NCBI GenBank assembly: GCA_020848035.1
Contig: JADLAX010000027.1
Coordinates: forward strand, 41,528 to 73,527
Length of the DNA: 32,000 bases
Source: Anaerolineae bacterium
GTDB taxonomy: Bacteria > Chloroflexota > Anaerolineae > Promineifilales > Promineifilaceae
Direction: 5' to 3'
Shown: positions 1 to 30,612 of the stretch, in pieces
Numbering within the stretch: position 1 is the stretch's first letter
Layout: every line of letters begins with the position of its first letter
The notes under the pieces: model-generated
Told to the model about the DNA's origin: nothing
What the model saw: the letters and a program-made list of their open reading frames with translations, nothing else
The model's database searches: none
Program-made: the position numbers and the translations under genes

Positions 1-961
1 TCAGCGCCTGGCGGCACGGCTCGATGGAGCGCTTCACCAGCTCATCGGTCAGCTGTTCAAACTTGGCCCGGGAGAGGGTCAGGTTTAAATGCTTGGGTCC
101 GGTCGCATCGGCCGTTATATAGGGCAAATTAAGTTCGGTCTGCATGGTGGTAGACAGCTCGATCTTGGCTTTTTCGGACGCTTCCCGCAAACGCTGCAGC
201 GCCTGGCGGTCCTCACGCAGGTCGATGCCCTGGTCCATTTTGAACTGCTCGGCGGCCCAGTCGATAATCTTCTGGTCGAAGTCGTCACCGCCCAGGAAGG
301 TGTCGCCGTTGGTGGATTTCACCTCAAAAACGCCGTCGCCTACTTCCAGGATGGAAATATCGAAGGTACCGCCACCCAAATCGTAGACGGCAATCAGTTC
401 GTCGGCGTTGCTGCCCAGGCCATAGGCCAGGGACGAGGCCGTTGGCTCGTTGACGATGCGCAGCACTTCGAGGCCGGCAATCTTGCCTGCGTCCTTGGTT
501 GCCTGGCGCTGGCTGTCATTAAAGTAAGCGGGCACGGTGATAACTGCCTGGGTTACCGGCTGGCCCAAATAGGCTTCGGCATCGGCCTTGATTTTTTGCA
601 GGATCATGGCCGACACTTCCGGCGGGGAATATTCCCGATCGCTCAGCACAACACGCACATCACCATTGGGCGCTTTGCGCACTTCATAGGGGACGTATTT
701 CAGCGCTTTTTGCACCACGGGGTCATCAAATTTACGCCCCATGAAGCGCTTTACGGAAAAAACGGTGTTGAGCGGGTTGATGACCGCCTGACGCTTGGCT
801 ACCTGCCCCACTAATCGTTCGCCGGTTTTGGTGTTGATGGCGACGATGGAGGGGAAAGTACGGCCGCCTTCCGCGCTGGAGATGACAACCGGTTCGCCGC
901 CTTCCATAACGGCCGCTACGGAGTTTGTGGTTCCTAAATCGATTCCAATTATTTTGCCCAT
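1..961 (-). CDS. dnaK: Molecular chaperone DnaK (Hsp70), N-terminal ~320 codons; the C-terminal part lies beyond the window edge
   Basis: Absent from the ORF track because it runs off the window. The reverse complement from the ATG at 961-959 reads [27 protein letters not shown]...[20 protein letters not shown]...[12 protein letters not shown], the Hsp70 ATPase-domain signatures. It lies 23 nt downstream of grpE on the same strand. Confidence 0.95.
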
Positions 962-4435: not shown

Positions 4436-5659
4436 ATGATTTCCCGTTTAGCCTCTAGCCTTAGCGTTATTGTTTTGAGCATCATTGTTTTTCTGGGTGG
4501 CTACGTTTTAGGCCAATCGCCCGTCGCACCTGTTCAAGTTTTTGCGGATACGGCCGTTTCCCCGCCCACCACCGCCGAATTTGAACCCTTTTGGGAAGTG
4601 TGGGAGTTGGTCCACGAGCGTTACCTGCGCCAGCCGGTAGACAACACTGCGCTCGTGGAAGGTGCCATCGAAGGGATGCTGGCCGCGTTAGGCGATCCGC
4701 ATACCAGCTACCTCTCCCCCGCAGACCAGCAGGCCGCAGAAGAATCTATGGATGGCGAATTCCAGGGCATTGGGGCTGAAGTGGAGGACGTAGACGGCAA
4801 TATCACCGTTGTAGCTCCCATCGACGGCTCTCCGGCGGCCGCGGCGGGCATTCAACCGGGCGATATTTTGCGCATGGCCGATGGTGTGGAGCTAACCGGC
4901 ATGGACGTGACGGAAGCTGCGGCCCTGGTGCGCGGCCCGGCGGGCACCACCGTCAGCCTGGTCATTGAACGGGAGGGCGAACTGCTAAACATCGACATTG
5001 TGCGAGACGTGATTAAGCTGGCCACCGTGCGCGGTGAAATTTTAGACCAAGGCATTGCCTATCTGCGCCTGAGCCGCTTTGGCAATACGACCGACGAGGA
5101 GTTGGAAGAGCTTTTACCGGGGCTGCTGGCCGAAAATCCTTCCGGGTTGATTCTAGACCTGCGCCGCAACCCTGGCGGTTCCCTCGAAACGGTGGTGGAA
5201 ATCGCCGACCAGTTTTTGGGCGACGGTCTGGCCCTGGTGGAACGTTTTGGCGATGGGGAGGAACGGCCGTTTGAAATCAGCGACGACGGGCTGGCCCAGG
5301 ATATCCCCATGGTGGTGCTCATTGACGAAGGCAGCGCCAGTGCCTCAGAAGTGCTGGCTGGCGCGATCCAGGATCGCGGACGAGGCGTGCTGATTGGGCA
5401 GATTTCCTTTGGCAAGGGTACCGTGCAAACCTGGCACACCTTGTCCAACAATGGCGGTGTGCGGGTAACAATTGCCGAGTGGCTGACGCCCAATAAAAGC
5501 TCCATCGACCAGGTGGGCCTGACGCCCGATTACTACATTCCCCTGCCCGACGTAGAAAACGGAGCGGCGTTTGAAGATACGCAGCTGCAAGCAGCCATCG
5601 ACTTTTTGCAGGGCAAAACGGTTATCAGCATTCCCCCGGAACCCAATCTGGAAAATTAG
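4436..5659 (+). CDS. S41 family carboxyl-terminal processing protease (PDZ domain, Ctp-like)
   Basis: The ORF track start is 4400. The ATG at 4436 is preceded by GGAG (4425-4428) and gives a signal-anchor N-terminus (MISRLASSLSVIVLSIIVFLGG). A PDZ region (GIGAEV...SPAAAAGIQPGDIL) and the S41 catalytic region (LIDEGSASASEVLAGA) are present. Confidence 0.88.
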   Translation: MISRLASSLSVIVLSIIVFLGGYVLGQSPVAPVQVFADTAVSPPTTAEFEPFWEVWELVHERYLRQPVDNTALVEGAIEGMLAALGDPHTSYLSPADQQAAEESMDGEFQGIGAEVEDVDGNITVVAPIDGSPAAAAGIQPGDILRMADGVELTGMDVTEAAALVRGPAGTTVSLVIEREGELLNIDIVRDVIKLATVRGEILDQGIAYLRLSRFGNTTDEELEELLPGLLAENPSGLILDLRRNPGGSLETVVEIADQFLGDGLALVERFGDGEERPFEISDDGLAQDIPMVVLIDEGSASASEVLAGAIQDRGRGVLIGQISFGKGTVQTWHTLSNNGGVRVTIAEWLTPNKSSIDQVGLTPDYYIPLPDVENGAAFEDTQLQAAIDFLQGKTVISIPPEPNLEN

Positions 5660-7977: not shown

Positions 7978-8008
7978 AATTACCCAATTACAAATTACTC
8001 AATTACTT
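7978..8008. repeat. Right arm of the 31-bp inverted repeat bracketing the low-GC lipoprotein gene
   Basis: aattacccaattacaaattactcaattactt. It contains the recN stop codon (8003-8005). See the left arm at 7298-7328. Confidence 0.8.
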
Positions 8009-9757
8009 AGCTTTCACGGCCGTTTTTGTCCCATTCGCCAGTGCCAGAATCGATTCAGCACCGCCGAGAGCGTGTTCGCCCTGGGTGCCCAGCATCGCGG
8101 CGAGTTCCTGCACCCGGCCGTCGCCCTCCAGCGTTTTGATGCGGGTGGTGGTACGGCCGTCCGCCTGGGCCTTACTAACGTGGAAATGAATGTCGCCATA
8201 ACCGGCCAGCTGCGGCAAATGGGTGACGACGATGACCTGGTGGTGAGCAACGGCCGTTAAACCCCACAACTTGCGCCCCACCACATCCCCCACCCGGCCG
8301 CCAATACCCTGGTCAATCTCGTCGAAGATGAGCGTGGGTGTCTGGTCCACCTGGGCCAGCGCCGTTTTCAGCGCCAGCATGAGGCGGGCCGTTTCACCAC
8401 CGCTGGCAACTTTGGCCATTGGCTTCAGCGGCTCGCCAGGATTGGTGGAAATGAGAAATTCAGCGTGATCAAAGCCCGTCTTGTCAAACGCCAGCCGCTC
8501 CCCCTCAACGTACAGGCCGTCAAATTGTGGTACCCGCTCAAACTGCACTTCAAATTGAGCGCCATCCATCTGCAAATCGGCGAGCTGGGTGACAACGGCC
8601 GTGGCCAAACGCGCCGCCGCCGCCTGCCGTTTTTTCGACAAAGCGAGGGCCATTTCACCGCAGCGCCGCAAATAAGTTTCTTCAGTTTTCACCAGCTCAG
8701 CAATACGCTCCTCGCTGTTGTCGATGCGGGTCAGCTCCAGTTTGGCCCGGTCGCGCAGCGCCAAAATTTTGCCAATGTCCTCGCCATATTTGCGTTTGAG
8801 CAGGTTGAGCAGCTCCAGCCGCTCCTCAACAAAATCGAGCCGACTGGGGTTGTACTCCACTTCATCCAGATAGCTTTGCAGCTCCGACGACACCTCGGTG
8901 AGCTGATAAATCAGCCCCTGCAGCCGCTCCAGCAGCGGTCCCTTCGTTTCATCATAGCGGGTAAGCTGAATGAGTGAGCGTTCGGCCTGGCCCAGCATAT
9001 CGGCCACGGCCTGGCTTTCGTCGTCCATGCCCGTGAGCAGGTTCACCGCCTCAGACGCCGCTTTCATCAGCTGTTCGGAATTGGCCAGGCGTGTTCGTTC
9101 GGCACGCAGCTCTTCTTCTTCCCCTTCCTTGAGCTTGGCCGCTTCAATCTCCTCGATCTGGTAACGCAGCATGTCGGCGCGCTGCGCCAGCATACGCTCA
9201 TTCTGGCGCAAGTCGGCCAGCTCGGTGCGAATCTCCAGGAGTGCGCCGATTTCCTGGGCCAGCGCCGTCCGTTCCACCTGGACCCCGGCGTAGGAATCGA
9301 GCAGCGGCAAGTGAGAGCGCGGCTGGAGCAGCGACAGGTGCTCACCCTGGCCGTGGATGTCGATCAGCGGTTCGGCCACATCGCGCAAGACGGAGAGGTT
9401 GACGGTACGGCCGTTGACCCGACAAATATTACGGCCGTTCAGCCGCAGCTCGCGGGACAGCAGAACGGCATCACCGTGCTCCTCCGCCTCGGCATCCAGC
9501 CCTTCGGCTTCCAGGATGGGGGCCACAATCTGCTTAAGCGCGTCAGACAGGGTAAAGGTCGCTTCAACGTACGCTTCGCCCGCGCCCGACCGCACCAGCG
9601 TGGTGTCGGCCCGCCCGCCCAACATCAGCATCACGGCGTCTAAAATAATGGACTTACCAGCGCCGGTTTCACCCGTCAGCACATTAAAGCCGCTGTGAAA
9701 GTGCAGGCGCAGCTCGTCGATGATGGCAAAATTTCGGATGTAGAGTTCTGTTAACAT
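8003..9757 (-). CDS. recN: DNA repair protein RecN
   Basis: 584 aa. N-terminal Walker A (MLTELYIRNFAIIDEL...LTGETGAGKSIILDA), a long coiled-coil middle, and a C-terminal SMC-like signature and Walker B (SGGETARLMLALK...LIFDEIDQGIGG). Confidence 0.95.
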   Translation of the reverse strand: MLTELYIRNFAIIDELRLHFHSGFNVLTGETGAGKSIILDAVMLMLGGRADTTLVRSGAGEAYVEATFTLSDALKQIVAPILEAEGLDAEAEEHGDAVLLSRELRLNGRNICRVNGRTVNLSVLRDVAEPLIDIHGQGEHLSLLQPRSHLPLLDSYAGVQVERTALAQEIGALLEIRTELADLRQNERMLAQRADMLRYQIEEIEAAKLKEGEEEELRAERTRLANSEQLMKAASEAVNLLTGMDDESQAVADMLGQAERSLIQLTRYDETKGPLLERLQGLIYQLTEVSSELQSYLDEVEYNPSRLDFVEERLELLNLLKRKYGEDIGKILALRDRAKLELTRIDNSEERIAELVKTEETYLRRCGEMALALSKKRQAAAARLATAVVTQLADLQMDGAQFEVQFERVPQFDGLYVEGERLAFDKTGFDHAEFLISTNPGEPLKPMAKVASGGETARLMLALKTALAQVDQTPTLIFDEIDQGIGGRVGDVVGRKLWGLTAVAHHQVIVVTHLPQLAGYGDIHFHVSKAQADGRTTTRIKTLEGDGRVQELAAMLGTQGEHALGGAESILALANGTKTAVKAK

Positions 9758-9770
9758 AGGATTTTGGCGC

Positions 9771-9820
9771 GGAGATGGGAGGGTGGGAAGGCAAAAGTGA
9801 AAAGTAAAAAGTGAAAAGTG
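9771..9820. repeat. Phased heptamer array (7 units), purine-rich on the plus strand
   Basis: ggagatg ggagggt gggaagg caaaagt gaaaagt aaaaagt gaaaagt, located in the recN-upstream spacer. Confidence 0.8.
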
Positions 9821-10762: not shown

Positions 10763-11593
10763 TTATCGTGAGTGACCTAAGCGGCCCATGAGCCGCCGGT
10801 AAAAATAGCCCGAACTTTCCACGCGGGCAAATTTGCAGCTGTTTTCCGACTTGGTCACCAGCACCACATCCTCATCCTCCAGCAAAATACCGTCGGTGCC
10901 GTCGGGCGTCAGGTAAGCGTGGTGATCCATATGCACCGTGATCGCAATTTCAGCCTGCTCGTGAAAAATAATCGCCCGATCAAAGGTGAGATGGGGAGCA
11001 ACAGGCACCACCACAAAGTTGGGCAGCTGGGGCGGCAAGAGCGGCCCGCCAGCGGCCATCGAATACGCGGTGGAGCCAGTGGGCGTGGCCACGATCAGGG
11101 CATCGGCGGTGTAGTTGGTGACGTGATCGCCATCCACATGCAGCTGAAAACGCACCACGCGGGCCTGACGGCCGCGTCCCACCACCACGTCGTTAAGGAC
11201 AGAGAAGGTATGCAAGATACGGCCGTTGCGCCGAATCCGCGCCGCCAGCATCAACCGGTTTTCCGTCCAAAAATCACCTTCCAACAACCGGGTCAGCTTC
11301 TCGGGCCAGTCATCAGGCTGGGCCTCGCTTAAAAACCCCACCCGCCCCAGGTTGATGCCAAAAATGGGCACATCTTCCACACAGGCGTAGCGCGCGGCGC
11401 GCAGCAGCGAACCATCACCGCCCAGCACAACCAGAAAGTCGCTACCGTGTACCAGTTGCCCCATGCGTGCCTCGTCGTAGGAGGAGCCAATCCAGGCGGT
11501 AACGCCGCGTTGGGTCAGCCAGGTCTCAATTTCCACAGCCAGCGGCTGCGACTCGGCCACCTTGGGGTGATGGAGAATGCCAATTCGTGTCAT
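10763..11593 (-). CDS. nadK: NAD(+) kinase
   Basis: 276 aa. GGDGSLL motif (FLVVLGGDGSLLRAAR), NDVVV, and TPTGSTAYSMAAGGP, the canonical NAD kinase motifs. Confidence 0.93.
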   Translation of the reverse strand: MTRIGILHHPKVAESQPLAVEIETWLTQRGVTAWIGSSYDEARMGQLVHGSDFLVVLGGDGSLLRAARYACVEDVPIFGINLGRVGFLSEAQPDDWPEKLTRLLEGDFWTENRLMLAARIRRNGRILHTFSVLNDVVVGRGRQARVVRFQLHVDGDHVTNYTADALIVATPTGSTAYSMAAGGPLLPPQLPNFVVVPVAPHLTFDRAIIFHEQAEIAITVHMDHHAYLTPDGTDGILLEDEDVVLVTKSENSCKFARVESSGYFYRRLMGRLGHSR

Positions 11594-11598
11594 AGATG

Positions 11599-11630
11599 GG
11601 ACACTGATTTACACTGATTTACACTGATTT
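11599..11630. repeat. GG + three perfect tandem decamers ACACTGATTT; left arm of an inverted bracket around the GxxExxY gene
   Basis: ggacactgatttacactgatttacactgattt. The reverse complement of 12051-12089 reads ggacactgattgacgctgataaacactgatatttgattt. The first 11 nt are identical and overall identity is about 27/32. Confidence 0.8.
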
Positions 11631-11642
11631 GGGGATGCATTT

Positions 11643-12038
11643 TCAACCTTTTAGGTTTGGTTTTCTCGCATTATCGAATATTTTGCGTTTCTTGGTAGCT
11701 GACGGCCCGAAGTTTAACAGTAGTCCTACTTCAAATGGCGTTGCCTTTAGATAATTTAGCAACTGCGCTTCATGTATCGGCAGCAAGCTCGCCACGGCCT
11801 TAAGCTCCACAATAATTTTGTCCTCAATTAACAAATCGGCAAAATACTCTCCTACAACTTCTCCACGATAATAAACCTGAATTGGTGCTTGCTGCTGCGC
11901 CTTTAGGCCTCTCGCCCGTAACTCTATTGCCATTGAGTTTTCGTAAACTCGTTCAAGAAAACCGTAACCCAGGCTGTTATAAACAGCGTAAAAAGCATCA
12001 ACGATTTGCTGCGTTACGTCCTGGTGTTTGTATTGCAT
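11643..12038 (-). CDS. GxxExxY family protein (PD-(D/E)XK nuclease-fold superfamily)
   Basis: 131 aa. It has the eponymous motif GFLERVY (LGYGFLERVYENSMAIEL) plus ADLLIEDKIIVELKA, a D...E-x-K-like core. GC is about 43% in the stretch I counted. Confidence 0.85.
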   Translation of the reverse strand: MQYKHQDVTQQIVDAFYAVYNSLGYGFLERVYENSMAIELRARGLKAQQQAPIQVYYRGEVVGEYFADLLIEDKIIVELKAVASLLPIHEAQLLNYLKATPFEVGLLLNFGPSATKKRKIFDNARKPNLKG

Positions 12039-14206: not shown

Positions 14207-14743
14207 TTAGCCCAGACGCTGGGTGCAAGCGGAGGCCACCCCACAGCGGGCACAACGATTCCAGTCGTTATGGTCACGATCTAACTCAGGTTCATACATG
14301 TCTTCGCGCATCTCGGTGAGCAAATCGAGCAAATCTTCGCGCAGGCCGTCGGTGTAATCGACAGCGAAGGCGCGGTCTTTGTACTGGATGATGCCATGCG
14401 ACGGCCGTATCCCATATTCCCGCTCCACCAGCCAGCAGTACGCCGCCAGCTGGTAGATATGGCTCTCATACGGCTCGGTCGGGGCACGCGTGGCTTTTAT
14501 TTCCACCGGCACAATCGAACCATTGGCCTCTTCAACCAGGTAATCGGGTTTGCCCACCAGGCGCAAGTGGGGGTCGTAAAACGGCTCGGTGTTGGTAACC
14601 CAGGCACTGCCGGTGTCGCTGTATAGGATACGGCCGTCGGGCAGCCCAGCCTGCTCCGCCAAGACCCCGCTGCGCCACCACAGAAACAGCGCCACAGCCA
14701 GCAGCAAAAAGCCAAATCCCAGTGCGTAACCACCCCAAATCAT
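14207..14743 (-). CDS. Cas4-like PD-(D/E)XK nuclease, catalytic C-terminal part, with an N-terminal TM helix
   Basis: 178 aa. N-terminal TM helix (MIWGGYALGFGFLLLAVALFLWW), then the RecB/Cas4 motifs: D (GKPDYL), E-x-K (VPVEIKA), QxxxY (YQLAAY), and a C-terminal CxxCx5C (CARCGVASAC) Fe-S ligand triad. Confidence 0.75.
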   Translation of the reverse strand: MIWGGYALGFGFLLLAVALFLWWRSGVLAEQAGLPDGRILYSDTGSAWVTNTEPFYDPHLRLVGKPDYLVEEANGSIVPVEIKATRAPTEPYESHIYQLAAYCWLVEREYGIRPSHGIIQYKDRAFAVDYTDGLREDLLDLLTEMREDMYEPELDRDHNDWNRCARCGVASACTQRLG

Positions 14744-14749
14744 TGCGGT

Positions 14750-14989
14750 CTACCCACCTACGAATGAATAAGCCATCATGGCCACTACCACAAAAATCAA
14801 CACGTACGCCGCCCGCCGCAGCCAGACAGACTGCTGTACCAGGCTGCCATGCTGCCGATGATGCTGCGTGCCGCGAGCCAGCTCGCGCACATTTTCCGAG
14901 GCGATGCCCCGGCTGCGCTTAAGCCACCAACTGCGCCGACAGTACAAATAGTCACCAATTTCGCTTGCGCGGATCCAATTATCGCTCAT
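14750..14989 (-). CDS. Cas4-like nuclease, N-terminal part (first Fe-S cysteine helix) with a C-terminal TM helix
   Basis: 79 aa. IRASEIGDYLYCRRSWWL matches the Cas4 N-terminal Cys motif. It ends in a TM helix (AAYVLIFVVVAMMAYSFVGG). It is in the same frame as 14207-14743, separated only by TAG plus 2 codons. Confidence 0.6.
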   Translation of the reverse strand: MSDNWIRASEIGDYLYCRRSWWLKRSRGIASENVRELARGTQHHRQHGSLVQQSVWLRRAAYVLIFVVVAMMAYSFVGG

Positions 14990-14997
14990 ATGTTCTA

Positions 14998-15025
14998 ATT
15001 CTAGTCAATTCCGCCGCCCTGTCAA
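14998..15025 (-). promoter_or_regulatory. Near-consensus promoter giving a (near-)leaderless transcript for the Cas4-like operon
   Basis: The minus strand reads TTGACA (15025-15020), a 16-nt spacer, then TAGAAT (15003-14998). Only 8 nt separate the -10 box from the ATG at 14989, and there is no SD. Confidence 0.5.
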
Positions 15026-26124: not shown

Positions 26125-26247
26125 GATGGAAGAAGGAAGAAGGAAGAAGAAAAAGTGAAAAGTAAAAAGTAGACGTTCACCTACCACTTTTGACTTATCA
26201 CTTTTCACTAATCACTTCACTCAATCCTCTCTCACTTTTAACTCACT
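26125..26247. repeat. Inverted pair of phased heptamer arrays (7 purine-rich units, then 10 pyrimidine-rich units)
   Basis: gatggaa gaaggaa gaaggaa gaagaaa aagtgaa aagtaaa aagtaga (26125-26173), then cacctac cactttt gacttat cactttt cactaat cacttca ctcaatc ctctctc actttta actcact (26178-26247). It ends 16 nt before the UPF0182 ATG. Confidence 0.82.
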
Positions 26248-26263: not shown

Positions 26264-29170
26264 ATGAGTCGTGACAACTGGGACATCCCAGAAGTGTTTC
26301 GCCGGGCTATGGAAGAGGCCGGCTGGGAAGGCAATAAAGGTGAGGGCAATGAAGGGGGCGAAGGCGGCGGTCAGCGCCCGCCCATTCCCAATCGCCCAAC
26401 ACAGCCGGGCCGCAGCAACCGCAGTTGGTGGATCGTTGGCATTCTCTTTTTGTTGTTCATCAGCCTCAACTGGATAGTGGGGGTTTATACCGATTGGCTC
26501 TGGTTCAACGAGCTAAATTACCAGAGCGTCTGGCTAAAGCGCTGGAGCTACCAGCTGGGCAGCTTTATCGCCTTTTTTCTAGTTGCCTTCCTTATTTTCT
26601 GGGGCAACTGGCGGCTGGCACGCCAGCGGGCTATCAAGGCCACCCCGCCGTTTTACCCGCGTTTTCTGCAAATCCGCGGCATCCCCTGGCTCATGAGTGG
26701 CGCGGCCCTTTTGTTGGCCTTTGGCTTTGCCAGCTCTATTGCCGTGCGCTGGGACGAATTTCTGCTTTTTCTCAACCGCGTACCTTTTGGCACGGCCGAT
26801 CCCATCTTTGGCCGCGATATCAGCTTCTATCTGTTTGAGCTGCCCGTCTACGAGGCGCTGCAGCAGTGGGCCAGCTCCTTGCTGCTGCTGACGCTGCTGG
26901 GCGTGCTGGCCATTTACGCTGTGAACAACATCGTTGATATTCAGCGGGGCAAGTGGCGGCCGCAGGAATCGGTAATTTTGCGGCAGCATGTGGCCCTGCT
27001 GGCGGCACTGATTTTGCTGCTGTGGGCTGTAGGCTACCTGTTCCAGATTTTTAACCTCAACTATTCACCCCGTGGGGTGGTGTTTGGGGCCAGCTACACC
27101 GACATGAACGCGACGATCTATGCCCTGTATGCCCAAATGGCCTTCATGGGGCTGGCGGCGCTGGTGATGTTGTTTAATGTCTTTCGGCTGAGTTTACGGC
27201 CGTTGCTCCTCATTGGCGCTCTCTGGCTGGCGGCCACAGTGTTGCTGGGTGGCGTCTATCCCGCTATCTTACAGCGGTACGAAGTGGAACCCAATGAACT
27301 GGTGCGCGAGACACCCTACATCCAGTACAACATCGAATTTACCCGCCTGGGCTTTAACCTGGACAAGATTGAAGTACGCAACTTCAGCGAGGTTGATACC
27401 CTAAGCCAGGGTGACGTTACAACCAACAGCGCCGTGTTGTCGAACATTCGCTTGTGGGATTATCGGCCATTACAGCTTACCTTCACCCAATTGCAGGCGT
27501 TACGGCCGTATTACGTCTTTGGTGAAGTCGATATCGATCGCTACGAAATTGACGGTGAAATCCAGCAAGTCATGCTGGCCGCCCGCGAACTCGACAAAAG
27601 CAAGCTATCTTCCCTCTCCTGGGTCAACGAAAGGCTGGAATTCACCCACGGCTATGGCATCGTCATGAACCCCGTCGACCGCTTTACCACCGACGGCCAG
27701 CCCGAATTTTTCATCAAAAACCTGCCGCCAGAGAGTGAAATCCCGCTGCAAGTTACCCGCCCCGAAATCTACTACGGCGAATTCACCAATGACGAGGTGT
27801 TTGTTGGCAGCGCCCGCGAAGAGTTTAGCTACCCCAGCGGTAACGAAAACGTCTACTCCAGCTACGAAGGCAGCGGCGGTGTACCGCTCGACAACTTCCT
27901 CAAACGCATAGCCTTTGCCCTCCGCCTCGGCGACGCCAACGTCCTGCTCAGCGATGAAATCAACACCCAAACCCGGGTGCAAATCCACCGCCAGATTCAG
28001 GAACGGGTGCGGCTGCTGACCCCCTTCCTGGCCCTGGACAGCGATCCCTACGTGGTGCTCACGAATGATGGCAACCTCATCTGGGTGCAGGATGCCTTTA
28101 CCTACAGCAGGCGTTTCCCCTACGCGACACCCAACAGCATCCTGCCCAACAGCGATATTCCCGGCGAGCTTGCCAATATTAACTACGTGCGCAACGCCGT
28201 TAAAATCACCATTGATGCCTACAACGGAACCGTCAACTACTACGTTGTGGACGAACAAGACCCCATCATCCAATCATACAGCCGTGCCTTCCCTGGTCTC
28301 TTTAAGCCGTTCAGCGAAATGCCGGAAAATCTGCAAAACCATCTACGCTACCCGGAAGATTTGTTCACCATTCAGGCGCAGCAATACCTGCGCTACCACA
28401 TGACCGACGTCCGCGTTTTCTTCAACCAGGAAGACGTGTGGCAAATCCCGCAAGAGGTGTATGAAGGCAATCAGCAGCTAATGGAGCCGTACTATGTCAT
28501 CATGCCGCTGCCTGGGGAAACAGAAAGTGAATACTTACTTATCCAACCGTTTAACCCCACCGGCAAAGACAACATGATCGCCTGGATGGCCGCCCGCAAC
28601 GATCCCGCCAACTACGGCCAGTTGGTGATGTATGAACTGCCCAAGCAGGAGCTTGTTTTTGGCCCGATGCAAATCGAAAGCCGCATCAACCAGGATTCCT
28701 TCATCTCGCAGCAGTTTGCCCTCTGGGATCAGGGTGGCTCCAACGTGCTGCGCGGCAATCTGCTGGTGATTCCTCTGGGCAACAGCTTTTTGTACGTGGA
28801 ACCCATCTACCTGCAAGCCTCAACCAGCGCTCTGCCCGAACTCAAGCGGGTGATCGTGGCCACCGATACCCGGATCGCCATGGATTTGACGCTAGACCGG
28901 GCCTTAACGGCCCTGCTGGCCGCCGAGCCGGGCGAAATTACGCCTGAGCTTGAAGGGCTGGAAACGGCCGAAGATCCAGTACCCGAACCAACTACACCCA
29001 CCATCCCCACTGCCCCGCTTGATGCCTCCGTGGAAGAGCTGATCGCCTCGGCCAACGCCCACTTTGAAGCGGCTCAAGCAGCCCAGCAAAGCGGCGATTG
29101 GGCCACCTACGGCGCTGAATTGAAAGCTCTGGAAAGTGACCTGGCCCGGTTAATGGAACTGACGGAGTAG
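26264..29170 (+). CDS. UPF0182 family large membrane protein
   Basis: 968 aa. Gly/Glu/Pro-rich N-terminus, about 7 TM helices, then a large soluble region with UPF0182-typical stretches (YIQYNIEFTR, LWDYRPL, LRPYYVFGEVDIDRY, LIQPFNPTGKDNMIAWMAA). Confidence 0.88.
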   Translation: MSRDNWDIPEVFRRAMEEAGWEGNKGEGNEGGEGGGQRPPIPNRPTQPGRSNRSWWIVGILFLLFISLNWIVGVYTDWLWFNELNYQSVWLKRWSYQLGSFIAFFLVAFLIFWGNWRLARQRAIKATPPFYPRFLQIRGIPWLMSGAALLLAFGFASSIAVRWDEFLLFLNRVPFGTADPIFGRDISFYLFELPVYEALQQWASSLLLLTLLGVLAIYAVNNIVDIQRGKWRPQESVILRQHVALLAALILLLWAVGYLFQIFNLNYSPRGVVFGASYTDMNATIYALYAQMAFMGLAALVMLFNVFRLSLRPLLLIGALWLAATVLLGGVYPAILQRYEVEPNELVRETPYIQYNIEFTRLGFNLDKIEVRNFSEVDTLSQGDVTTNSAVLSNIRLWDYRPLQLTFTQLQALRPYYVFGEVDIDRYEIDGEIQQVMLAARELDKSKLSSLSWVNERLEFTHGYGIVMNPVDRFTTDGQPEFFIKNLPPESEIPLQVTRPEIYYGEFTNDEVFVGSAREEFSYPSGNENVYSSYEGSGGVPLDNFLKRIAFALRLGDANVLLSDEINTQTRVQIHRQIQERVRLLTPFLALDSDPYVVLTNDGNLIWVQDAFTYSRRFPYATPNSILPNSDIPGELANINYVRNAVKITIDAYNGTVNYYVVDEQDPIIQSYSRAFPGLFKPFSEMPENLQNHLRYPEDLFTIQAQQYLRYHMTDVRVFFNQEDVWQIPQEVYEGNQQLMEPYYVIMPLPGETESEYLLIQPFNPTGKDNMIAWMAARNDPANYGQLVMYELPKQELVFGPMQIESRINQDSFISQQFALWDQGGSNVLRGNLLVIPLGNSFLYVEPIYLQASTSALPELKRVIVATDTRIAMDLTLDRALTALLAAEPGEITPELEGLETAEDPVPEPTTPTIPTAPLDASVEELIASANAHFEAAQAAQQSGDWATYGAELKALESDLARLMELTE

Positions 29171-29239
29171 ATGAGGGATAAAGGATGAGAGATGAGGGAT
29201 GAGAGATGAGGGATGAGGGATGAAGTGGGAGGTGAGAGG
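29170..29239. repeat. Ten-unit phased heptamer array GATGAGR
   Basis: gatgagg gataaag gatgaga gatgagg gatgaga gatgagg gatgagg gatgaag tgggagg tgagagg. It starts at the last base of the UPF0182 stop codon. Confidence 0.85.
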
Positions 29240-29316: not shown

Positions 29317-30132
29317 TCATTTATCAAAATGAATTTCAGCAGGTTTGGCATAGCCCAACGACAAATGTGGGCGGTCGTAGTTGTACAGCCAAACCGCTTC
29401 GGCCACAGCCTGTTGCGCGTGCGCCACATTGACAAACAGGTCATCAAGACCATACTCGTTCTTTAAAATGCCGTTCATACGTTCGGCCAAAGCGTTGTCG
29501 TAGCAGTTGCCTACCTCACCCATGCTGGGTAGCAAGCTGTGCTCTCTGAGGCAATCACGGTACGGCCAAGAAGTGTATTGCACGCCATGGTCGGAATGAT
29601 GGACCAACCCGGCCACCGGACAATGGGCCTGGTTGATAGCCAGCTGCAAAGCACGCAGGCAGCCTTCCGTGGCCAAAGAGGTAGAAATATCATAACCGAC
29701 AATAAAGCGCGAAAAGGCATCGGTCAGCAGAGCCAGATAGACAAAGCCCGTTTCCGTCGTGATGTAGGTGATGTCACCAACCCACGCTTGATAGGGAGCC
29801 TCCAACGTCAATTCCGCCAGACGATTGGGGCAACGCCAGGAGCCAGCTAAGGTGGTTCGCCGTTGATTCCGCTTGGGGACAATCAGTAACTCATGGGCGC
29901 GTAGCAGGTTAAAAAAAGCATCTCGACCACGGGTAATCTCCAGGTTTCCCCAGCAGGGCCGCAGTTCATGATACAGCTTGCGTCCTCCCATCTGGGGATG
30001 GAGCCGCCGTTTTTCTTTGACCAAGTCCAGGAGGATCTGGTTCTCAGCTTCCTGTTGCTGCTGTCGCTGTTTGGCTTGAAAGTAGGCTTGACGGCTGATG
30101 TCAAACCAGGTCACGGCGGCTTGAGTCGTCAC
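29317..30132 (-). CDS. IS3-family transposase OrfB (DDE/rve integrase domain)
   Basis: WVGDITYITTETGFVYLALLTDAFSRFIVGY (first D), HSDHGVQYTS (second D), NCYDNALAERMNGILKNE (E). The frame is -1 relative to orfA, so the natural product is probably an OrfAB fusion. Confidence 0.9.
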   Translation of the reverse strand: MTTQAAVTWFDISRQAYFQAKQRQQQQEAENQILLDLVKEKRRLHPQMGGRKLYHELRPCWGNLEITRGRDAFFNLLRAHELLIVPKRNQRRTTLAGSWRCPNRLAELTLEAPYQAWVGDITYITTETGFVYLALLTDAFSRFIVGYDISTSLATEGCLRALQLAINQAHCPVAGLVHHSDHGVQYTSWPYRDCLREHSLLPSMGEVGNCYDNALAERMNGILKNEYGLDDLFVNVAHAQQAVAEAVWLYNYDRPHLSLGYAKPAEIHFDK

Positions 30133-30521: not shown

Positions 30522-30572
30522 CCTAAAGGGTAATTATATCTGTCAACTATATTTAGGACGGGTCAGGTCATT

Positions 30573-30612
30573 CACTTCTCACTTCTCACTTCTCACTTTT
30601 TACTTCTCACTG
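30573..30612. repeat. Phased heptamer array CACTTCT (about 5.5 units)
   Basis: cacttct cacttct cacttct cactttt tacttct cactg, directly after the IS3 right end and 7 nt before the DinB-family ATG. A remnant, tttcacttctcattttt, lies on the other side of the IS (29254-29270). Confidence 0.85.

Follow-up and report, generated by a model that had tools for sequence, protein, structure and literature searches.

Two adjacent genes on the minus strand of a contig from an Anaerolineae bacterium (JADLAX010000027.1; the 32,000 nucleotides (nt) from position 41,528 to 73,527, hereafter the window) appear from their homology to be consecutive pieces of one Cas4 domain. The first open reading frame (ORF), the small subunit ORF-N, lies at 14750..14989 (a coding sequence for 79 amino acids at 14753-14989 and a TAG stop at 14750-14752). 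It is followed by the large subunit ORF-C at 14207..14743 (178 amino acids, with its ATG at 14741-14743). We consider it likely that the pair represents a conserved Chloroflexota system in which a Cas4-family nuclease, that is, a RecB-like PD-(D/E)XK enzyme with an iron-sulfur (Fe-S) cluster, is naturally split into two single-pass membrane proteins. A preliminary description of this DNA had read the locus as one membrane-hairpin Cas4 interrupted by an in-frame TAG and had named three possible explanations: a fresh nonsense pseudogene, stop-codon readthrough, or a genuine two-subunit anchored nuclease made by termination-reinitiation. Its inventory of parts was reproduced, with the N-terminal Cas4 cysteine helix (Cys17) and a terminal hydrophobic helix (residues 60-79) in ORF-N, and a hydrophobic first helix, the D, ExK and QxxxY motifs and the CxxCx5C triad in ORF-C.

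The two-gene arrangement was followed through relatives in several searches. A genome scan with one genome per GTDB species confirmed 400 species-level relatives, from which the best 80 loci were analysed; 78 of these could be evaluated for an ORF-N partner, the other two being cut by contig ends. All 78 were split, with an ORF-N homolog directly upstream of ORF-C on the same strand. A concatenated ORF-N + ORF-C query returned 2,585 homologs, and the best 120, which we inspected, were almost all 172-191 amino acids long, covered the ORF-C part only, and came from Anaerolineae and other Chloroflexota metagenome-assembled genomes. A fused homolog of at least about 45% identity would have outranked these C-only matches, and apart from a single protein considered below (P0007) there was none among the 120. 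The search with ORF-N gave 69 homologs, all of 75-128 amino acids and mostly named 'hypothetical protein'. Its profile hidden Markov model, run against a library of 1.84 billion protein representatives, matched 1,092 clusters (formed at 50% identity) at E ≤ 1e-3, of which 350 reached E ≤ 1e-10. We inspected the best 150, all of which had 55-139 residues and ended just past the hydrophobic helix, with no fused ORF-N/ORF-C protein among them. Distant members of the small-subunit family still preceded a Cas4-like ORF that started with a hydrophobic helix of its own. The collection of homologs suggested in the preliminary description therefore returned split genes, and the uniformly single ORFs that it had set against its own reading were not seen. 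In our judgement it is highly probable that this design of two genes is genuine and functional.

Each half is homologous to the matching part of Cas4. In profile searches ORF-N matched positions 2-53 of TIGR00372 (E 6e-4, 19.7 bits) and ORF-C matched positions 63-179 (E 3e-17, 63.0 bits), which supports the Cas4/PD-(D/E)XK homology proposed earlier; an artificial concatenation of the two reached 78.8 bits against the curated cut-off of 65, which neither half passes alone. Nearly all ORF-N homologs (47 of 49) individually matched the N-terminal part of TIGR00372. An ORF-N profile run against the PDB retrieved Cas4 chains only, with Cys17 (codon 14939-14941, minus strand) aligned to the N-terminal Cas4 cysteine and Gly40/His44 (His44 codon 14858-14860, minus strand) aligned to the GxxxH motif, as seen against the G...H of chains 8D3L_I and 4R5Q_A. 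The N-terminal part of ORF-N contains EIGDYLYCRRSWWL and its C-terminal end is the hydrophobic AAYVLIFVVVAMMAYSFVGG (minus-strand translation). Across the 49 homologs M1, A8, S9, C17 and G40 were invariant, and S2, E10, Y14, R19, W21, W22, H44, H47 and G48 were at least 90% conserved. In ORF-C the catalytic motifs that mark RecB-like PD-(D/E)XK nucleases are all present as D67 (in PDYLV), E81-x-K83 and Q98xxxY102, and are followed by C164xxC167x5C173; D67, E81, K83, Q98, Y102, C103, C164, C167 and C173 were invariant in 117 homologs.

A structural model points the same way. The AlphaFold2 model of ORF-C (mean predicted local distance difference test (pLDDT) 79.3, predicted template modelling score (pTM) 0.65) was confident in the N-terminal helix and the core and of low confidence in the tail that carries the Cys triad, as would be expected if a partner were missing. 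Foldseek with this model returned Cas4 chains at the top (8D3Q_J, 8D3L_I and 7MI5_A; E ~1e-5, probability 1.00, template modelling (TM) score ~0.49), with MGME1, ACE1, AdnAB, SSO0001, Dna2 and EXO5 among the lower matches, so that ORF-C, as modelled, has the Cas4 fold.

The pair shares the RecB-like core, the Cys signature and GxxxH with the Cas4 associated with clustered regularly interspaced short palindromic repeats (CRISPR), a family (TIGR00372/PF01930) that includes SSO0001 (4IC1), Pcal_0546 (4R5Q), the type I-C protein (8D3L) and Cas4-Cas1 (7MI5). It differs from canonical Cas4 in being two polypeptides, in an extra conserved cysteine (C103), and in about 80 residues inserted between profile positions 53 and 63, made up of two hydrophobic helices and a GLPxGxxxYxD linker. 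It differs further in having no nearby cas1, cas2 or CRISPR and a housekeeping synteny instead. Where the Cas4 family is typified by a single soluble polypeptide, two genes were found here in all 78 loci, each with a predicted transmembrane helix. The linker motif, GLPxGxxxYxD...W, occupies ORF-C residues 33-48 (window ~14600-14647, minus strand), after the anchor helix and ahead of the nuclease core. Its G33, P35, G37, Y41, D43 and W48 are invariant or nearly so, have no counterpart in canonical Cas4, and were modelled at low confidence.

The four-Cys Fe-S signature, an N-terminal Cys plus CxxCx5C, is present but spread over two polypeptides, and the metal ligands of SSO0001 are His62, Asp99 and Glu113 (PMC13621843). 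By alignment, the most likely contribution of ORF-N is a ligand to the Fe-S cluster and another to the catalytic metal. Because ORF-N carries Cys17 and the GxxxH histidine while ORF-C carries D, ExK, QxxxY and CxxCx5C, both sites, catalytic and Fe-S, are probably made up of residues from the two proteins.

Both proteins are predicted to be held in the membrane by one helix each. The Kyte-Doolittle mean over a 19-residue window exceeded 1.7 in both at every intact locus, and both hydrophobic segments were at least 20 residues long with a mean hydropathy of ~2-3 in every species. The first helix (AAYVLIFVVVAMMAYSFVGG; 14753..14812, minus strand; ORF-N residues 60-79) ends its protein and is predicted to cross from the cytoplasm to the outside, and the second (GGYALGFGFLLLAVALFLWW; 14675..14734, minus strand; ORF-C residues 4-23) is predicted to return from the outside to the cytoplasm. 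ORF-N had 3.06 lysines plus arginines in the 12 residues before its helix versus 0.19 after it, and a mean C-terminal tail of 2.4 residues; for ORF-C the values were 0.01 before the helix versus 2.04 after it, with a mean N-terminal tail of 2.3 residues. Because of this charge pattern, read by the positive-inside rule, the soluble parts of both proteins are predicted to be cytoplasmic, with the break falling at the outer turn as in a cut hairpin. In the ORF-C model the helix runs from residue 2 to 32, with block-mean pLDDT values of 83, 96 and 75 over residues 1-30.

We propose that ORF-N and ORF-C are co-transcribed from a conserved promoter on a probably leaderless mRNA, and that translation of ORF-C begins at a start codon of its own, with a Shine-Dalgarno (SD) sequence often placed inside the end of ORF-N. 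ORF-N, tail-anchored by its C-terminal helix, would contribute the helical N-terminal element that bears the GxxxH histidine and the first cysteine of the Fe-S site; ORF-C would contribute an N-terminal anchor helix, the CxxCx5C triad and the nuclease core with its D, ExK and QxxxY motifs. With both soluble parts at the cytoplasmic side and ~2 residues of each protein outside, the two antiparallel helices may lie against each other in the bilayer as the arms of a cut hairpin would. Pairing of this kind would reunite the halves into a single Cas4-like domain on the inner side of the membrane, whose active site, and probably its [4Fe-4S] site too, would be shared by both proteins. Such an Fe-S nuclease would act on DNA ends or single-stranded DNA independently of CRISPR, possibly in connection with DNA damage; as to its role, our best guess is that it processes DNA ends or takes part in repair at the membrane. 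We think it fairly likely that the halves assemble as described.

Several points weigh against this assembly. The binding of ORF-N to ORF-C is something we infer, and membrane insertion is predicted from hydrophobicity and charge only. ORF-C has four conserved cysteines of its own, C103 and the triad, in 68 of 79 loci, and might bind a cluster without ORF-N. Because of these four cysteines, a cluster shared between the proteins is an argument from homology and is likely rather than proven; the preliminary description was right that the ligand motifs are divided between the ORFs, and its step from there to an obligatory sharing is equally an argument from homology. The best 120-150 matches of each search were inspected, and fused relatives may exist lower down. 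Finally, P0007 (L081 347-1057), a singleton of 236 amino acids on a 1.2-kb metagenome contig that retains the family promoter, was the only fused homolog found among the matches inspected. Its two parts are fused midway through the helices, the front half of the ORF-N helix running into the back half of the ORF-C helix, so that one hydrophobic stretch of 24 residues is left. Its model was poor (pLDDT 72.5, pTM 0.38), and a fold search with it gave weak Cas4 matches (E 0.07, TM ~0.25). With one stretch only, P0007 is hard to square with a topology that strictly requires two transmembrane helices, provided that this singleton is neither defective nor an artefact. It may derive from a genuine in-frame deletion (a defective variant) or from faulty assembly; alternatively, it is a caution against the strict two-pass picture.

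The alternative that survives best takes up the cysteines: ORF-C would be a self-sufficient anchored nuclease holding its cluster on C103, C164, C167 and C173, and ORF-N an accessory protein, such as a regulator, inhibitor or stabiliser. The confident modelling of the core on its own fits this idea, as does a solo-Cas4 mutant without the cluster that, according to a passage of PMC13621843 citing the work, was still active. We nevertheless regard it as unlikely, since the homology of ORF-N is to just that stretch of Cas4 which ORF-C lacks (positions 2-53 against 63-179), since the Fe-S cysteine and the GxxxH ligand of ORF-N vary hardly or not at all, since ORF-C has no replacement for the GxxxH histidine, and since the Cys-triad tail was poorly ordered when modelled alone. 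A second alternative, which we judge quite improbable, is that the helices do not cross the membrane and serve as a soluble or peripheral hydrophobic zipper that dimerises the halves. P0007 speaks for it, as a membrane-spanning linker would be topologically incompatible with one 24-residue stretch if the halves must meet. The length and hydropathy of the segments in every species, the positive-inside charge asymmetry, the terminal tails of ~2 residues in both proteins, and the modelling of both helices as long continuous helices all argue instead for the two membrane anchors of the split nuclease.

The junction between the genes bears on the remaining two explanations. In the window it spans 14744..14758 (minus strand) and consists of an SD-like GGTGGG (14753-14758), the TAG stop (14750-14752) and the 6-nt spacer ACCGCA (14744-14749). 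As had been described, the two ORFs are in the same frame 6 nt apart (TAG, ACC GCA, ATG), and the SD-like element lies within the last ORF-N codons, 9 nt before the ORF-C ATG. Programmed readthrough or recoding of the stop, giving one fused hairpin-containing Cas4 polypeptide, would be in keeping with the in-frame TAG and 6-nt spacer, which are common to the closest relatives (L001, L004, L005, L007, L008 and L011). Other close relatives depart from this pattern: L002, L003 and L009 are out of frame with a TAA stop, and L006 and L010 have 76-nt spacers. Over all loci, ORF-C lay in frame 0, +1 or +2 relative to the ORF-N stop in 30, 19 and 30 cases, so that frame 0 was about as frequent as chance would give. 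All three stop codons were used (TAG 33, TAA 25, TGA 21), and the gap ranged from -8 to +201 nt (median 7), ORF-C usually beginning 0-10 nt past the ORF-N stop. Six or more loci had overlapping ATGA junctions (overlaps were of 4-8 nt), about 20 had spacers of 40-201 nt that were filled by short tandem repeats and contained stops, and the loci compared had no conserved readthrough context. Readthrough is accordingly very improbable. Because frame, stop codon and spacing vary among relatives, the in-frame TAG appears to be incidental, a coincidence of one sublineage rather than a feature of the system; the shared frame in the window is unremarkable, as it has a one-in-three chance of occurring and is not conserved.

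ORF-C had its own start codon in all loci (ATG in 72 of 79) and was preceded by an SD-like motif in 35 of 79, often inside the end of ORF-N. Since long spacers occur, translational coupling of ORF-C to ORF-N does not seem to be obligatory, and of the termination-reinitiation proposal the two-subunit nuclease is supported while reinitiation is not required. Both genes are under strong purifying selection (Nei-Gojobori dN/dS 0.094 in ORF-N, 0.118 in the hydrophobic tail of ORF-N, and 0.056 in ORF-C). They also evolve together: the distance matrices of the two correlate at a Mantel r of 0.82, a value that none of 999 permutations reached. The chance that the pair is a fresh pseudogene, a single membrane-hairpin gene recently inactivated by the TAG, is close to nil: the in-frame ORFs with one stop between them suggest it in the window, but the split falls at the same place in every evaluable locus with varying frames, stops and spacers, dN/dS is below 0.1 for both ORFs with no relaxed selection or lineage-restricted disruption, ORF-C always has its own start, and P0007 is the sole uninterrupted homolog among the best 120 and best 150 matches. 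The universal split, the unconstrained junction and the selection on both genes thus refute pseudogene and readthrough alike and leave the two-gene nuclease.

A few loci showed further variation. In L084 the small subunit P0310 (3001-3560) has two hydrophobic helices and is followed by a normal anchored C subunit. The P0276 locus (L085 3001-3908) has its C subunit in fragments of 76 and 82 amino acids, owing either to a frameshift or to an error in long-read sequencing; there is an insertion in its small subunit, and SSB is encoded upstream. The short tandem repeats seen in the spacers (unit ~7-10 nt; AATTACC, AAAAGTG, TCACTTC, ACGGATT, CAGTGAA and similar) also occur in intergenic regions of the window, at 7978-8006, 9793-9819, 11601-11630, 26185-26217, 29169-29238 and 30572-30611. 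The same kind fills the ORF-N/ORF-C spacers of L006, L010, L014, L016-L018, L021, L033, L040, L060 and others, and resembles the short tandem repeat families of filamentous bacteria.

A strongly conserved promoter precedes ORF-N. In the window a sigma-70-type promoter (14998..15025, minus strand; 11/12 match) has its -35 element TTGACA at 15020-15025, a 16-nt spacer, and its -10 element TAGAAT at 14998-15003, followed by TAGAACAT and the ATG, so that the -10 element ends 8 nt before the start codon. A promoter matching at least 9 of 12 positions, with the -10 element ending 7-8 nt before the ORF-N ATG, was found in 65 of 78 loci. An SD sequence before ORF-N was absent in 74 of 79 loci, and between the upstream in-frame stop and the ORF-N ATG the window holds zero alternative start codons. 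From the distance between -10 element and ATG, the lack of an SD sequence and the lack of another start codon, the ORF-N mRNA is probably leaderless or nearly so. Leaderless genes with a TAtaaT signal have been described in some Chloroflexi (PMC3160421).

A 16-nt block, TAGAACATATGAGCGA (14982..14997, minus strand), spans the probable transcription start and the first ORF-N codons, and the promoter together with the block (TAGAACATATGAGC) overlaps the ORF-N start and is nearly invariant. In consensus form, TTGACA-N16-18-TAAAAT followed by (T)AGAACAT-ATG-AGC occurred at the same position in ~72 of 78 loci. The block carries ~1.6-2 bits per position and is nearly invariant even where the proteins are only 40-50% identical, and Ser2 is encoded by AGC in nearly all cases, out of six possible codons. 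The 10-mer AGAACATATG had 67 occurrences in 632 kb, all at ORF-N starts, versus 1.2 expected; a general leaderless signature was considered as the source of AGAACAT and rejected because the 10-mer occurs at ORF-N starts only.

The block has features of an operator. As AGAACATATGAGCG it matched the Cheo/LexA box CGAACATATGTTCG, a consensus of the Gram-positive type, at 11 of 14 positions, with only the GAAC half-site perfect, and its rare variants differed at spacer positions only. Like SOS operators, it overlaps a promoter and start site; unlike the Cheo box, its second half-site is GAGC and not GTTC. Chloroflexi LexA is reported to use the Gram-positive box. No lexA or recA homologs were found in the window or the 80 loci, no Cheo-like box was found upstream of recN in the window, and perfect GAAC-N4-GTTC sites (the B. 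subtilis LexA consensus, as cited in a passage of PMC4234289) occurred at chance frequency only, most of them being an unrelated palindrome, ACGGCCGT. The block thus resembles an operator, and a LexA-type operator is a candidate that we think has the odds somewhat against it; SOS control of the pair is likewise a doubtful proposition. Also tentative, and in our view less likely than not as a whole, is the fullest version of the model, a phylum-wide split enzyme whose catalytic centre and [4Fe-4S] cluster form only on helix pairing, which would make for an assembly-gated, membrane-located, non-CRISPR form of DNA processing, perhaps damage-induced through a Cheo-like operator over a leaderless start.

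The palindrome ACGGCCGT, often extended to AACGGCCGTT, was ~50-fold over-represented, with 699 occurrences versus 13.8 expected in 632 kb, and was present in 64 of 81 sequences (the window and the 80 loci). The window has eight copies versus 0.1 expected (at 5262, 8249, 16255, 17822, 17902, 21188, 22069 and 30815). It is also found within genes, and in this Anaerolineae clade it behaves as a highly iterated palindrome (HIP1-like); our literature search for ACGGCCGT found no report of it.

Fe-S clusters that tie an N-terminal helix to the rest of a nuclease domain are known: in AddB and Cas4 the cluster sits on one N-terminal and three C-terminal cysteines. The Fe-S ('iron-staple') nucleases AddB/AdnAB, Dna2, EXO5 and MGME1 belong to the same fold class and were among the structural matches of ORF-C. 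They have a soluble nuclease domain in one polypeptide, to which AddB/AdnAB and Dna2 add a helicase or helicase-like module, whereas in the split pair such a staple would need to bridge two distinct membrane proteins. Our literature search for split or membrane-anchored Cas4 found none described, in agreement with the earlier remark that a membrane-embedded Cas4 is not known as characterised; the JCVI-syn3.0 paper concerns a different Cas4-like fusion. A monophyletic solo-Cas4 of many Chloroflexi was noted by Hudaiberdiev et al. (2017; PMC5704561), and the split pair is probably that clade or part of it. The main text of that study mentions neither 'transmembrane' nor 'split' nor a second small gene, and uses 'membrane' only in the name of an unrelated enzyme.

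An obligately two-gene, membrane-tethered Cas4, as the homologs suggest, would be a new form of Cas4-family nuclease. For annotation this matters in both directions: the small-subunit family has more than 1,000 clusters at 50% identity, and ORF-N homologs that carry a name in public sources are called 'hypothetical protein', except for a few labelled Cas4 by the Joint Genome Institute (JGI); the ORF-C-type partners are annotated as complete Cas4 or PD-(D/E)XK proteins though a ligand of the Fe-S cluster and another of the metal are missing from them. Vertical inheritance of a membrane-tethered form with two subunits in a housekeeping locus argues that solo-Cas4 has a role in CRISPR-independent DNA metabolism. 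If the model is true, an Fe-S 'staple' and an active site would be assembled naturally across two polypeptides by way of transmembrane helices, and the split enzyme would be a housekeeping factor of filamentous Chloroflexota, so far overlooked, for the repair or handling of DNA. The pair could also serve as a model for split-protein complementation and tolerance of gene fission, and the conserved promoter/operator over a probably leaderless start would offer an experimental handle on its control.

The pair sits in a syntenic housekeeping region. The gene order on the minus strand of the window is secD, secF, a lipoprotein gene, a zinc-dependent alcohol dehydrogenase (Zn-ADH) gene, ORF-N, ORF-C, an ABM gene, a glyoxalase gene, hisS, a PDDEXK_3 protein gene, nadK, a TPR/B-box protein gene and recN. 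Neighbourhood clustering across the 80 loci showed that hisS, nadK, the TPR protein, ADH and secDF are kept, with hisS, nadK and the TPR gene downstream of the pair in 42-45 loci. As stated in the preliminary description, the window contains no CRISPR array or cas gene; we found no defence island in it either, and at this locus no linkage to cas1/cas2 or an array of the kind that marks a CRISPR adaptation module. A functional link to the downstream genes was considered and rejected, as the ABM and glyoxalase genes are lineage-specific and hisS/nadK reflect synteny with no obvious shared pathway.

Other features of the window touch the pair less closely. The recN gene (8003-9757, minus strand; with 10763-11593 noted alongside) is found downstream of nadK and shares its orientation, an arrangement also seen in L085. 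The gene between hisS and nadK (11643-12038, minus strand) encodes a second, unrelated small PD-(D/E)XK protein (PF13366 PDDEXK_3, E 4e-42), for which the neighbourhood clustering of the 80 loci recovered no conserved family. An rve-family integrase (insertion sequence (IS) element transposase) at 29317-30132 (minus strand) adjoins the 7-nt tandem repeat array at 29169-29238. Matches to PF10712 often fall on the antisense strand of dnaK. An ORF at 89-814 (plus strand), adjoining grpE and hrcA, matches PF10712 'NAD-specific glutamate dehydrogenase' at E 1e-70, and may be a spurious frame opposite dnaK.

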